DNA of 63,106 bases, filler included, from Candidatus Eiseniibacteriota bacterium (GTDB taxonomy: Bacteria; Orphanbacterota; Orphanbacteria; Orphanbacterales; Orphanbacteraceae), in assembly GCA_043809585.1 (NCBI GenBank). It is 9 parts of 8 records of this genome, joined end to end, with 100 filler letters (N's around TTAATTAATTAA, not from the genome) between each part and the next. Parts side by side here need not be neighbours in the genome. Positions count along the whole stretch, not along the records: positions 3,862 to 17,276 come from JBDROZ010000008.1; 8 more parts are not named here. The stretch is one strand, 5' to 3'. Of the stretch, positions 4,061-13,531 are shown one piece after another. The translations under genes and the position numbers were made by a program. Position 1 is the first letter of the stretch. Every line of letters begins with the position of its first letter. Under the pieces are notes generated by a model. The model was given only the letters and a program-made list of their open reading frames with translations, did no database searches and was not told the DNA's origin.

Positions 4061-4236
4061 CGGCGGGGCAGGGGATCGGAGGAGGGAGGGGGATGGGGCG
4101 GACTGGAACGCTCGTCGTGCCGCAGGGGAGAAAGCCCTCCCATTCTCCGGACTCGCGGCGACTGCGGGGCGGAGGTCAAGAAATCGCTCCCCGGTTATGC
4201 CCCGCCCCCTCCCGATACCGATCCCCCGTCCCGCCG
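4061..4236 (+). ncRNA. Putative structured non-coding element, copy 1 (family unknown)
   Basis: Long closing stem; core GACTGGAACGCTCGTCGTGCCGC..CCCTCCCATTCTCCGG..CCGGTTAT shared with 13361-13531; G-U pairs favour the + strand; GATAAT just upstream. Confidence 0.5.
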
Positions 4237-4276
4237 GGCTCTTTCAAGCAGTGCGTGGTACAACACGCACTCCCCC

Positions 4277-5059
4277 CTACTCGTACTTCAGCTCCGACCC
4301 GAACATCGAATGAGGAATCAGGAAGATCACGAACGTCACCACCGCCGCTCCGAAGATCCACCACCTCGGGTGTCCCCGCCCCCGCATCTTCAAGAGCGCG
4401 ACCCCCCACGCCAAGAACGCGATCAGCGTCTTGTTGTCCGTCAGGTCCCATCCGTAGGGGACCCCGGTCCAGAGCGCGCCGAACGCGTACTTCTGCACGA
4501 TCGGCCCGAAGATCATTCCCCCGAGCGTGAGGAGCGCCGCCGACCAGAGCGCGTAGACCCGCATCTTCTCGCCGTTCCGGAGCGCCTCCAAACCCGCCCG
4601 GTTCGAGAAGAGCATCCCGGCGAACATGGCCAGGATGTGGGGAAGGAGAACCGCCGCCGGCACCCCCCCCTTGAAGCGGGCGACCGTCGTTCCGTGATTC
4701 GGCAACATCCCCGACTCCGCGCCGTCCCGGATCACCACCTTGTATTCCAGCTTCCCCGCCGGCGGTTGGTGAGGGAGCGCCGCCGTCAGCCGGCCGTCCC
4801 CCTCCCGGGACATGTCGATCGACCGGAACTGCTCGGTCGCCCTGTAACGCCGCCAGAACAGGCGCCCCGTCGCCTCCGGACCCGCCCCGTCCACCACCAC
4901 CGGCAGGTCCCCTTCCCCTTCGTGGGACCGGAGCAGTTCGGCGTGGGCCTGGTACCCGCCGACCCCCGCGGTCGCTTGCTCCGGGTACGTGGGCCCGGTT
5001 GTTCTCTGGTAGTAGGCCGCCCCCACTGTGACGAGGAGCGCGAGGATCCAGTGCAGCAT
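4277..5059 (-). CDS. Conserved hypothetical membrane protein
   Basis: N-terminal TM (AYYQRTTGPTYP), soluble domain, then about four TM helices with QKYAFGALWTGVPYGWDLTDNKTL; start at MLHW (GGAGG RBS). Confidence 0.75.
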   Translation of the reverse strand: MLHWILALLVTVGAAYYQRTTGPTYPEQATAGVGGYQAHAELLRSHEGEGDLPVVVDGAGPEATGRLFWRRYRATEQFRSIDMSREGDGRLTAALPHQPPAGKLEYKVVIRDGAESGMLPNHGTTVARFKGGVPAAVLLPHILAMFAGMLFSNRAGLEALRNGEKMRVYALWSAALLTLGGMIFGPIVQKYAFGALWTGVPYGWDLTDNKTLIAFLAWGVALLKMRGRGHPRWWIFGAAVVTFVIFLIPHSMFGSELKYE

Positions 5060-5236
5060 GGGTTTCCTCCGTCTGAGACGTGCGTGTCCGATCGACCGCA
5101 CGGAGCATACCGGAACCCCGCCCTCCCCACAAGACCGTTCCAAATCACCCTCGACGGATCCGGCCGCTCGACTATACTGTCGGAAACGTCCCGCCCGGCC
5201 GCCGGGCTTCCGAATCAGCCGCCCCCGGGGATCGAA

Positions 5237-10493: not shown

Positions 10494-13172
10494 CCGGATG
10501 CCTTCGACGTGTCGGGAGCGGTCTTCTTCTTCGATCCCCCACCGAGAAGCCCTTCCAGCGAAGGCGTCTTCCCGCCGAGAAGGTCGCCGATCGCCTTCTG
10601 GACGTTCTCGTCTTTTTGGATGTCGTCGATCACCTTGTCCAGGCCTTCGATGCCGGCCCGCGAGGCGGTCTTCGACGCGTCGAGGGTGATCGCGGGCCGG
10701 TCCGTCGTCCCGCCGACCTTCACGTCGAGCACGACCCGCCCGCTCGGGTCGGTGAACAGGCTCGTCAGGGCCGACTTCTTCCGGTACGCCGCGGAATTCG
10801 CCTCGGAAAGGGTGATGGTCAGGGCGTAGTCGAGGGTCCCGTCGAAACCGACCGACCCGGCCGCGTTCCAATCGGCGTTCTTCCCTCGGACCAAGAGATC
10901 GTCGAAGCGGACCCGCCCCTTGTCTACGGCGAACTTGGACCAGAACTCCCGGAACTCGATCTGCCCCATTTCCTTCATGCCGAGGAGGTCGGCCGCCCGG
11001 TCCAGGGCGGTCAGATTGCGGATCCGGCCTTCCGCGGCCTTCATGGTCCCGTTGGCGGAGAGGCTCGCGAGAAGCTCCTTCTCCGTCAGTCCCCGCCCCT
11101 CCCAGGCCGACTCGAGACGGAACCTCCCGTAGAGAATGTCCTTCGCGGGCGTCAGATTCGTCAGGAAGTCGTTCGCTTCCACGTTCTCCGCGCGGGCGGC
11201 GAAGCGGTAGGTCGCGCCTCCCGGCTCGTTCAGCCTGACCGAGGCGTCCCCCGCCACGGTCCCCTCCCACACGTTCGCGGTGACGCCGTCCAGGTTCACC
11301 ACCCCCTCGGGCGTCAGTGCGATCTTCCCGCGGATCGACGTGAGGGGCACCCGGTAGGCGAGGGCCTCCTTCGCCGTGAGATCGCCGGACAGGGTCCCCC
11401 CTTCCACGCGGAGGTCGCCGACCGCTTCCTTCACGGCAACACCGCCGAAGAGCCCCCGGGCCATCCGGATCCGAATCGTCCCCTCACCGTTCTTGACGTC
11501 GAGGGTCGCTTCCGCCCCCGTCAGAACGTTGACGCCGGTGATCACCGTGTCCGCCTTCACCGTCGCCGCGAGGGTAATCGGCGGGAGCGGGGGAAGCACG
11601 ATGGGGGGCGGATCGGCGGCCGTCCCCGGAGAGGGGCTTCCTCCCTCACCCTCGGGCGCGGAGGGGAGGAAGGCGTTGAAATCGATCTTCCGCGTCACCA
11701 GATTCGCGGTCGCCCGGAGATCGCCGAGGGGGTCGGTCACCTTGCCGGTCAGTGTGGTGGGCGAGCCGTTCAGATCGAACCGGAGGTTCTTGATCTCGGC
11801 GGAGCGCCCCGAGAGGGCGATCTCCCCCGACGCGTTCGCCGCCTCCACGGGGGGATCGGCCAGGGCAAGCCGGGCGGTGACGATCTTCACGGAACCATCG
11901 AGACCCACACCGTTCGGATCGGCGACGCGACCCCGGGCGCGGACGTCCGCGCTGAGCCCGCCGGAGAGCGTGGTCCCTTCCGGAAGAAGCCCGGCCCGGC
12001 CGAGGGCGGCGAGGTCGAGATCGGCCTTCACCGCGAGATCCACCGCGGGATCGGCGAAACTCTCGACCGATCCGTTCACACGGAAAGGCCTGCCCCCGAT
12101 CGACCCCGCGATCTCTTCGAGGCGGACCGCCGATTCCGTCGCCTCGATCCGCCCTTTCAGGCCGGTGATCGACTCGGAGAACTTCTTGTTCCGGACGTCG
12201 ATCCCGCCGAGCCGGGCGGCCACGCGGAACGTCGGAGGCCCCCCGGGGGCGACGTGAAGCTCCCCCTCGACGGAAAGGGGCCCGGACCCCTCGAAGTCGG
12301 AGGCCCCTTTCGCCGCCGTTTCGGCCGGGAGGAGGGAGAGGAGATCGGCCAGCTCGACCCTCTCCGTCGCGAGGGTGAGGGAGGCCCGGAGCGAGTCGGG
12401 AATCCCGATCGCCTCCCCCCCGGAGATCGACGGCGAGACGGGCGAGAGTGAACCGGAGGCTCCGGATCTCGGCGGCACCCGCTCCGGGGTCGTAGCGGAG
12501 ATCGTAGTCGATCGCGAGGTCCCGGAAGCCCTCGCCGAAACCGAGGGACCGGACCGACGGCCCGGCCAGGCTTCCGATCCAGACCCCTCCCTCGGCGGCG
12601 ACCCTTCCGTCCCGTTCGAGCCCGAGGGATGTCTTGGCATCCAAGCCGCCGAGTTCATAGGCGGCGCCGGCCGCCCGGTCGATGTACGTCACGGTGGCGT
12701 TCTCCACCTCCGCCGACGAGAGGAGGAGGGCGAAGGAGGCGCCCCCCTTTTTCGCCTCGCCGGGGGCGGTCTCCGCGGGCACCGGACCGGTCTCCCCTTC
12801 CCCTTCCGGCGACGGGGGCCTCTCCACTTGGACCAGGTGGATCACCGGGTCCCGCAGGAAGACACGGGCCATTTCGACCCGGCGGGAGAGGAGGGGGAGG
12901 ATCTTGACCGATACCGTTCCTTCCGGGAGTTCGAGGAGGGGGGGTTCCCCCTCGACCGGATTGCCGACGACCAGGCCCGCGACGGAAGCGCCGAGGGGAT
13001 AGATGGAGACCTTCGCCTCTTCCACCGTGACCGGAGCGCCGACCGCCTCGGACACCTTCTCGATGATGAGGGCCCGCACCTTCTCGGGCGGATAGAGGAG
13101 CCGCGCCGTCACGACGGCGGCGACAACGACAACGATGACCGAGACGGCGACGACGGCGATCCACTTGCGCAT
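10484..13172 (-). pseudogene. AsmA-like protein split by a +1 frameshift in a G7 run (12415-12421)
   Basis: N-terminal AsmA domain (TM anchor, VSVKILPLLSRRVEM) is in one frame and the AsmA_2-like C-terminus (GSVGFDGTLDY) in another; removing one G gives continuous LAVDLRGEAIGIPD. Confidence 0.75.
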
Positions 13173-13360
13173 GATTCGATCTCCCCGGAGTTCCTGTTTT
13201 GGACGGACTCTCCCTAATTCAACACCGAAAGGGCGTTTGTGCATCAGAAAAAATGAGGAGGGGGAGAATTCGGGGGAGGGAGCCGAAGTTCAAGTTCCTT
13301 TGAAATCCTCTTCTGCACCCTGGAATGATCGTGTTGGTCGGCGATATCCGTCCGGAGGGA

Positions 13361-13531
13361 GGCGGGACGGTGGTCCGGCTCCGGGAGGGATGCGGGTTAG
13401 ACTAGGACGCTCGTCGTGCTGCGGGAGCAAACCCTCCCATTCTCCGGCCTCGTAGACGAGGCGCTCAGGAAGGCGGCAACAGCTGCCCGGTTATGACCCG
13501 ATCCCTCCCGGAGCCGGACCACCGACCCGCC
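13361..13531 (+). ncRNA. Putative structured non-coding element, copy 2 (family unknown)
   Basis: Perfect 24-bp inverted repeat 13368-13391/13501-13524 enclosing the same conserved core as 4061-4236. Confidence 0.5.

Follow-up and report, generated by a model that had tools for sequence, protein, structure and literature searches.

Introduction

REPINs are hairpin doublets that carry common compensatory changes and are linked to RAYT transposases, as set out for Pseudomonas fluorescens SBW25 and other bacteria in the excerpted text of PMC3116915. Y1 transposase genes may also be flanked by terminal inverted repeats (TIRs), forming TIRtrons or TIRYT whose TIR families are dispersed; the sections of Di Nocera et al. 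2013 (PMC3733652) drawn on here give a GGGGWSAS motif at TIRYT flanks, and REP/RAYT palindromes with GTAG or CGTC at one end. Other small repeats include the enterobacterial ERIC/IRU (~127 bp) and RU-2 (168 bp) and the Correia elements of Neisseria (passages of PMC2759123, PMC2229807 and PMC3184786), while in the excerpt of 10.1101/279083 TnpA is described as recognising subterminal secondary structures on single-stranded DNA. Here we describe HP175, a hairpin repeat of ~174 nt that is present twice in a stretch of 63,106 nt (63 kb, hereafter the window) from the Candidatus Eiseniibacteriota bacterium assembly GCA_043809585.1. An earlier note on this DNA, made without knowledge of the copy number, presented the element as two copies; its genome contains at least 64. 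We lean towards reading HP175 as a lineage-specific, small, non-coding, non-autonomous interspersed hairpin repeat of the kind represented by REPINs, ERIC sequences and miniature inverted-repeat transposable elements (MITEs), which may be mobilised in single-stranded form by one of two Y1 transposases of its genome.

Results

HP175 forms a dispersed family in one genome

The genome assembly comprises 4.24 Mb in 123 contigs (~66% G+C, 97.5% complete), and both window copies belong to contig C8. For the N-terminal part of its RpoB the best match, at 67%, was from a Candidatus Eiseniibacteriota MAG, whereas HutH was uninformative as a marker of taxonomy. Copy 1 occupies positions 4061..4236 (C8:200-375) and copy 2 positions 13360..13532 (C8:9499-9671), both on the plus strand, where a covariance model built from 60 copies scored 161 bits (4058-4239) and 173.7 bits (13357-13535), respectively. 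The two elements are thus located where the earlier note had placed them, and the blocks ACGCTCGTCGTGC, GGGAG...CCCTCCC, ATTCTCCGG and CCCGGTTATG follow one another in the same order in each, as it had described. Aligned with each other, they span ~180 nt at a mean column identity of 81%, and copy 1 differs from the other copies in having 2 extra nt ahead of the GGGAG hairpin.

BLAST with copy 1 against its own genome returned 56 matches, and an nhmmer profile made from the two window copies returned 106, of which 64 were full length. The covariance model recovered the same 64 copies at >=138 bits together with ~20 partial copies that are truncated, interrupted or variant, the leftover matches in this genome being weak reverse-strand echoes of the palindromic HP175 stem; in the window it found exactly two copies. 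Four copies are clustered within C39:54731-59834, and copies were found at several contig ends, as expected because repeats break short-read assemblies. The alignment used for the figures on pairing and conservation (A2) comprises 60 copies, window copy 1 among them. The copies are kin by descent and fall into subfamilies, and pairing figures count alignment cells, not events.

HP175 is a discrete unit with a compensated stem

The HP175 unit starts with CGGCGGGG and ends with CCCCGCCG. When flanks of 120 nt were compared, similarity stopped <=1 nt from the common first base in 1035 of 1772 pairs, and <=1 nt from the common last base in 963 of 1772. These common sharp end points in pairwise comparisons indicate that HP175 is a discrete unit of ~174 nt. 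Its fold is an imperfect stem of ~45 bp that closes an asymmetric core of 85 nt. As RNA, copy 1 folded at -117 kcal/mol (z -5.75) and copy 2 at -126.3 kcal/mol (z -9.24), with none of 200 shuffles as good in either case, and the 24 consecutive pairs reported for the stem of copy 2 were seen in its fold.

The closing stems of the window copies had been described as unlike in sequence yet paired, which holds and extends to the 60 aligned copies: 93.1% of 2689 cells were paired over the 45 stem pairs, and both sides had changed in 14 of the 45 pairs (107 cells). None of 500 shuffles reached pairing as high, and pairing slid by 1-3 columns left 46-62% of cells paired. The compensating changes in the stem likewise exceeded those in 500 of 500 shuffles, bearing out stem covariation among the in-genome copies.

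Mean pairwise identity was 87.5% in the 5' part of the core and 91.9% in its last 14 nt, compared with 77-84% in the arms and 65.7% in the 3' part of the core, which varies by subfamily, including its fold. The GGGAG/CTCCC hairpin, correctly recognised in the earlier note, is invariant across copies and hence provides no evidence of covariation. The note's covariation of a further, inner hairpin stands for a part of the copies only, since its three central pairs form in just 32, 35 and 41 of the 60. Per-copy folds of the core disagree among copies, RNAalifold resolved the core poorly when given the 60 copies, its covariation term being only -1.76, and an all-against-all analysis of column covariation was uninformative because of the G/C-rich composition. 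The core structure that we claim for HP175 is the invariant GGGAG/CTCCC hairpin and nothing beyond it.

HP175 is non-coding. No frame is kept, the alignment having indels of 1-3 nt at 18 columns; small open reading frames (ORFs) on both strands were ruled out by these indels together with an A/T polymorphism that deletes the sole reverse-strand ATG. The tetranucleotides CGTC and GTAG are both found within the conserved core but are missing from the foot of the long stem, and the flanks have no tetranucleotide in common.

One strand of HP175 carries the pairing signal

Over 43 stem pairs in 60 copies, 261 G.T/T.G cells were counted against 53 A.C/C.A cells, 21 of the latter at one loop-edge position. 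In 52 of 60 copies, RNA of the plus strand was more stable than that of the minus strand (means of -110.6 versus -102.3 kcal/mol), and the proposal that G-U pairs favour this strand therefore holds strongly. The large excess of G·U over A·C cells indicates that one HP175 strand acts in single-stranded form. As HP175 is oriented at random relative to genes, the asymmetry cannot be attributed to selection acting on read-through transcription by the host. The strand would then be either single-stranded DNA in transposition or an RNA whose signals for transcription belong to the element itself; between these, DNA is favoured.

The small RNA (sRNA) or ribozyme offered among the options of the earlier note would suit the strand asymmetry of the pairing, as would, equally, a single-stranded DNA form. 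If the strand were RNA, HP175 could be a multicopy sRNA gene family, each copy being transcribed from a signal of its own, internal or adjacent. The conserved core would then function as RNA, for instance in catalysis, as a guide or by sponging a protein, and the repeat-like spread would be secondary. The strand-specific wobble, the greater stability of the plus strand, the compensating stem changes and a core conserved above the stem all agree with such a family, and a self-contained unit would, no less than a mobile element, be oriented without regard to its neighbours. However, neither a sigma-70-like promoter nor an intrinsic-terminator-like site was found at copy 1, and the differing flanks of the subfamilies leave no shared external promoter. 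In a test for intrinsic terminators across the family, the 3' flanks varied by subfamily, only some being T-rich, and no U-tract followed the hairpin. Covariation is absent from the conserved core hairpin and the remainder of the core has no fold common to the copies, many copies are interrupted, truncated or recombined, and no homologue was found outside one genome, which would be unusual for a functional RNA. We therefore regard an sRNA family as unlikely. The absence of a match to known RNA families, as suspected in the earlier note, was confirmed by an Rfam scan of the window at gathering score, which returned a tRNA only (38312-38385); in permissive Rfam scans of both copies the best score was 19.4 bits against thresholds of 35-168.

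HP175 copies bear signs of movement and of nested insertion

The closest HP175 pairs at different loci, four in number, are 96.0-97.8% identical and have unrelated flanks, with similarity ending at the element ends. Such near-identical copies, together with 64 dispersed copies, sharp ends and unrelated flanks, support the option of a structured mobile repeat that the earlier note had listed among others, and further support comes from other small transposons inserted in HP175 copies and from the absence of any copy in the other genomes searched.

Three HP175 copies contain a MITE of ~190 nt in their GGGAG loop, with TCAA or TTAA duplicated (C51:25900-26100, C70:620-810 and C52:39910-40100). 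In this MITE family, which has 71 terminal-repeat matches in the genome, the TIR begins CCTTGATCTTTCATAAAATCTCG and TCAA, TTAA or CTAA is duplicated; a member lies in the window at 3862-3997. One other HP175 copy has received a MITE of ~220 nt with CTAG duplicated, and in some copies parts are replaced by a segment of ~110 nt or by small REP-type hairpins.

For HP175 itself, the longest direct repeat across the ends reached 6 nt or more in 11 of 64 copies, with offsets that did not agree, compared with ~13% when ends were paired with mismatched partners. A search for an empty site with the 'type A' flanks that border one set of copies gave two candidates, both unrelated, and a looser pattern gave thousands of chance matches. 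Low-depth contigs assembled from three DNA runs of one study yielded, over window positions 3870-13800, fragments and joints to other copies but no clean empty site.

HP175 could alternatively be a MITE in the conventional sense, derived by deletion from a DDE-type insertion sequence (IS), in which case a transposase that is lost or encoded at another locus would bind the TIRs as duplex DNA. DDE-type activity exists in the genome, where no fewer than three other families of MITEs have clearly duplicated their targets. Long TIRs, well-conserved outermost bases, sharp ends and a size typical of MITEs would all suit this origin. Nevertheless, no target-site duplication was found, and no HP175 arms surround an ORF, though a master copy could be missing from the fragmented assembly. 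Arms that vary yet stay paired, with a wobble bias on one strand, are moreover unexpected if a protein reads the double-stranded ends, and we consider a DDE-type origin improbable.

HP175 is placed like a selfish intergenic repeat

Genomic context was assessed for the 55 of 64 copies that have two called neighbours, using a rough ORF picker based on G+C at third codon positions (GC3; 2883 genes, 81% coding). Convergent genes enclose 23 of the 55 copies, as compared with 512 of 2760 intergenic intervals; 26 copies lie between tandem genes (14 on the same strand, 12 on the opposite one), an arrangement that accounts for 1730 of the 2760 intervals, and 6 lie between divergent genes (518 of 2760). 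HP175 is thus intergenic, occurs in either orientation and is over-represented between convergent genes, and the genes adjoining its copies are unrelated to each other. Random orientation and an excess downstream of gene ends make up the pattern that selfish intergenic repeats show, and they argue against a leader or riboswitch. A riboswitch or cis-regulatory leader was rejected on these 55 copies, which have no fixed position or orientation and unrelated neighbours, and the near-even split in tandem contexts reinforces the argument against a riboswitch that had been made from two copies.

The same placement bears on whether HP175 might be a structural or regulatory element retained by the host, such as a BIME-like binding site, a transcript-end stabiliser or a terminator, whose spread was kept by a benefit to the cell. 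Enrichment between convergent genes and just after gene ends, a very stable hairpin, and a position within mosaics of other hairpin repeats, like that of BIMEs, would be in line with this. Enrichment at 3' ends is, however, equally expected from purifying selection against insertions into promoters, and tandem orientation is random despite the strand-specific pairing. As the hairpin is followed by no U-tract, and as the absence of HP175 from all relatives searched means that no conserved host function depends on it, retention for the good of the host appears quite unlikely.

Most HP175 flanks are themselves repetitive, forming mosaics with several other repeat families, both window copies included, and they differ between subfamilies. 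All 11 occurrences of a CCGGCCGGCCACG-type 5' extension run into HP175, and this stretch therefore travels with one subfamily. Three copies share a 50-nt upstream module (C18:27540-27590, C105:19050-19100 and C39:83450-83502) that resembles the 3' part of a tRNA, with a T-arm-like GCGCGTTCGATTCGTGC. A link to tRNAs was dismissed, as aragorn calls no tRNA at these three copies and only 1 of 47 tRNA/tmRNA genes lies <=400 nt from a copy. At the contig end C113:17968-18192, the HP175 flanks extend the palindrome by a further 25 bp on each side, which may be a fold-back artefact of assembly.

HP175 was found in no other genome searched

Searches with the covariance model gave no match in nine other genomes of the phylum, and BLAST gave none in 40 relatives. 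A strict core pattern was found at 64 places in the own genome and at none in genome_contigs, metagenome_contigs or viral_contigs, searches in which own or very near records may be skipped. Plasmids likewise contained no HP175 match, and no member was present at 80 metagenome loci with homologues of the GYD gene beside copy 2, the best of these homologues being 83% identical and too distant for a comparison of orthologous sites. The further homologues envisaged in the earlier note were therefore met within the genome, as the 64 copies, but in none of the nine others of the phylum, and on these searches HP175 is best read as lineage-specific.

A model match on a metagenome contig (L236:1051-1185) was set aside as an unrelated, near-perfect palindrome of 135 nt that reached 40.8 bits through its stem alone. 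This palindrome has GGGGAC-type arms and lies upstream of a GYD homologue, which indicates that long GC-rich hairpin repeats occur upstream of GYD genes in other organisms too.

Two Y1 transposase genes are candidates for mobilisation

Two genes for HUH tyrosine transposases (Y1_Tnp) were identified in the genome, and the repeats around one belong to a different family from those around the other. The RAYT/TIRYT-like gene at C51:15383-16050 (minus strand) is intact, with readable HUH and Tyr motifs, and has GGGGGACAC-type repeats in its flanks (15194-15233 and 16225-16303); this motif has ~500-525 matches in the genome at <=1 mismatch, some of them by chance. A third MITE, with 41 BLAST copies, lies beside this gene at C51:15292-15384. 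The second, Y1-like gene (C96:27617-28300; locus L104:1459-2150) contains an in-frame stop and lies between the two arms of a perfect 14-nt inverted repeat, AGGGACAGTCACCT, which also forms doublets of 36-77 bp at about ten other loci. HP175 was considered as cargo of this 14-nt element and rejected, given that the arms pair at 36-77 bp without HP175 inside and that the motif lies <=200 nt from only 7 of 64 copies. Outside the known copies, HP175 arms gave four weak matches only, and no TnpB/Cas12f-type gene was found in the genome.

Surroundings of the two window copies

The window consists of contigs joined by paired 44-N runs (3762-3861, 17277-17376, 27690-27789, 31147-31246, 35174-35273, 38747-38846, 55995-56094 and 60368-60467), and neighbourhoods across these joints are not real. 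Copy 1 lies 200 nt from its contig start. Upstream of it, the right part of the MITE that is ~190 nt when complete is cut by the contig start (3862..3997), its TIR ending ...TTTTATGAAAGATCAAGG, followed by CTAA, and the 14-nt motif that forms the inverted-repeat arms around the C96 Y1 gene is present at 4008..4021 on the plus strand. Downstream, a small hairpin AGTGCGTG...CACGCACT (4250..4271, plus strand) follows HP175 in the 'type B' subfamily and recurs with compensating changes in an alignment of 12 extended copies.

Copy 2 is bordered by modules of the type-A flank, both reversed. The 'R module' lies upstream (13296..13359, minus strand); it precedes or follows many other HP175 copies and is also found with other inserts. 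The 'L module' lies downstream (13533..13596, minus strand) and contains a small hairpin of the GGACC-TTCG-GGTCC type, a motif with 48 matches in the genome. In copy 2 and one other copy, the core is inverted relative to flanking modules of the kind that also surround ~25 other copies. Either the segment across the long arms was inverted, perhaps, or the element may have inserted both ways round.

As to the gene contexts given in the earlier note, that of copy 2, between divergent AsmA-like (minus) and GYD (plus) genes, was confirmed, whereas the assignment of copy 1 to the 3' side of a minus-strand gene is doubtful. Copy 1 is located 74 nt upstream of a LolA-like gene (4310-6007, plus strand) in a LolA-like/MacB-type operon, and Pfam supports this plus-strand gene but gives no match for a minus-strand ORF at 4277-5143. 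The AsmA/YhdP-like gene beside copy 2 (10484-13244, minus strand) is covered by two overlapping frames, 10484-12658 and 11646-13244, which may result from a frameshift or an assembly error. Elsewhere in the window, an ORF of 865 amino acids (865-3462, minus strand) encodes a Peptidase_C25 domain with propeptide and C-terminal Ig-like domain, as in the gingipain-type family of cysteine proteases.

Discussion

On the reading towards which we lean, HP175 moves, or once moved, as a unit without duplicating its target. Its active form would be one specific single strand folded as a hairpin, in which compensating changes have maintained the pairing. A protein encoded elsewhere would act in trans, recognising the stem foot and the conserved core. 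The most likely agent would be an HUH tyrosine (Y1, RAYT/TIRYT-like) transposase acting on single-stranded DNA, as proposed for REPINs, and effects on neighbouring genes, such as on transcript ends or stability, would be a by-product. That a Y1 enzyme may mobilise HP175 is suggested by analogy with REPINs as excerpted from PMC3116915, by the lack of target duplication and by the pairing bias of one strand.

Several points weigh against this reading. Neither Y1 gene is flanked by HP175 arms and no pair of HP175 arms brackets any gene in what is a fragmented assembly, and the two do not track each other across the phylum, with Y1 genes in 7 of 10 genomes and HP175 in one. Lagging-strand-dependent Y1 transposition is expected to leave a replication-linked orientation bias, but none was seen against GC skew, with 7 copies in the same and 8 in the opposite sense among 15 with usable skew, the skew being weak and the assembly fragmented. 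The median pairwise identity of ~80% implies that most copies are old, and neither empty sites nor excision products nor insertion polymorphisms came to light. Because the copies are kin by descent and fall into subfamilies, the cell counts and the Wilcoxon test overstate independent support, and the gene calls behind the context counts are rough. Finally, HP175 departs from the excerpted description of REPINs in PMC3116915 in its length (~174 nt versus 71-110 nt for SBW25 doublets) and in its middle being conserved above the arms, whereas REPIN arms are highly conserved and the spacer less so.

A more radical alternative is that the 85-nt core is a functional single-stranded module, either a guide or scaffold that recruits a recombinase or a self-processing motif, and that HP175 represents a new class of autonomous-looking, protein-less mobile RNA or single-stranded DNA element and no decayed end of a transposon. 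Bridge RNAs and omega RNAs serve their enzymes as guides or scaffolds. The bias of one strand, the conservation of the core above the arms, and the lack of a linked transposase and of any relative anywhere would allow such a module, which we nonetheless hold to be very improbable.

If the preferred reading is correct, HP175 is a further family of small, selfish repeats with a hairpin fold that are confined to one lineage, here in Eisenbacteria, a phylum for which a literature search covering part of the papers that bear the name found no paper on repeats. HP175 explains assembly breaks in this genome and warns against annotating the 64 loci as riboswitches, sRNAs or ORFs. With sharp ends, subfamilies, nested MITEs and two Y1 genes that each have their own repeat, the genome provides a clean case for studying the coexistence of several populations of repeats in the same intergenic regions. 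Unusual in HP175 are the asymmetric core conserved above the arms, the one-strand pairing and the orphan status; it is otherwise ordinary in kind. Should the acting strand be RNA rather than a DNA intermediate of transposition, the family would gain in interest.

Comparison with known systems

HP175 resembles REPINs, as far as the excerpts of PMC3116915 describe them, in being dispersed, extragenic and non-coding, with two inverted arms that form a hairpin in single-stranded DNA or RNA and show compensatory changes. Copy numbers of dozens to hundreds, lineage-specific populations, clustering, and single-copy Y1 transposase genes in the genome are further parallels in these excerpts, as is the lack of a target duplication seen for HP175. 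Beyond the differences in length and conservation, HP175 arms flank neither Y1 gene and no excision products were seen.

The TIRYT arrangement, judged by the cited sections of PMC3733652, is matched by the C96 Y1 gene, with its perfect 14-nt inverted repeat that is dispersed as short doublets, and the repeats flanking the C51 Y1 gene fit GGGGWSAS. HP175 shares intergenic islands with both of these Y1-flanking repeat families, a relation of adjacency only. In contrast to TIRYT repeats, its ends match neither flanking repeat, and it was never found between a pair of 14-nt arms.

ERIC, RU and Correia elements are intergenic imperfect palindromes of 100-170 bp that occur in both orientations, form long hairpins when transcribed and need no coding capacity. 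HP175 is also a non-coding intergenic palindrome in both orientations with a long predicted hairpin, yet it has no sequence relation to these families. Correia elements duplicate TA, for which HP175 has no counterpart.

IS200/IS605 elements and their MITE-like derivatives have two different short hairpins near their ends and no long TIR, do not duplicate their target and are moved by an HUH Y1 enzyme that recognises single-stranded hairpins in a strand-specific manner. HP175 would be comparable to them in its strand-specific single-stranded hairpin, its lack of target duplication and its candidate Y1 enzyme, but it has a long terminal inverted repeat, and its genome has no TnpB-type gene. With DDE-type MITEs it shares TIRs, small size and sharp ends, but neither a target-site duplication nor, in the assembled DNA, a transposase-encoding element sharing its ends. 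A likeness to integron attC sites or bridge RNAs was considered and set aside, HP175 being dispersed, outside cassette arrays and not adjoining recombinase genes. HP175 hence departs from each named family in a defining feature, having no RAYT flank, a core conserved above its arms, no target duplication and no parent IS, and is a new lineage-specific member of the broad REPIN/TIR/ERIC-RU/MITE kind.

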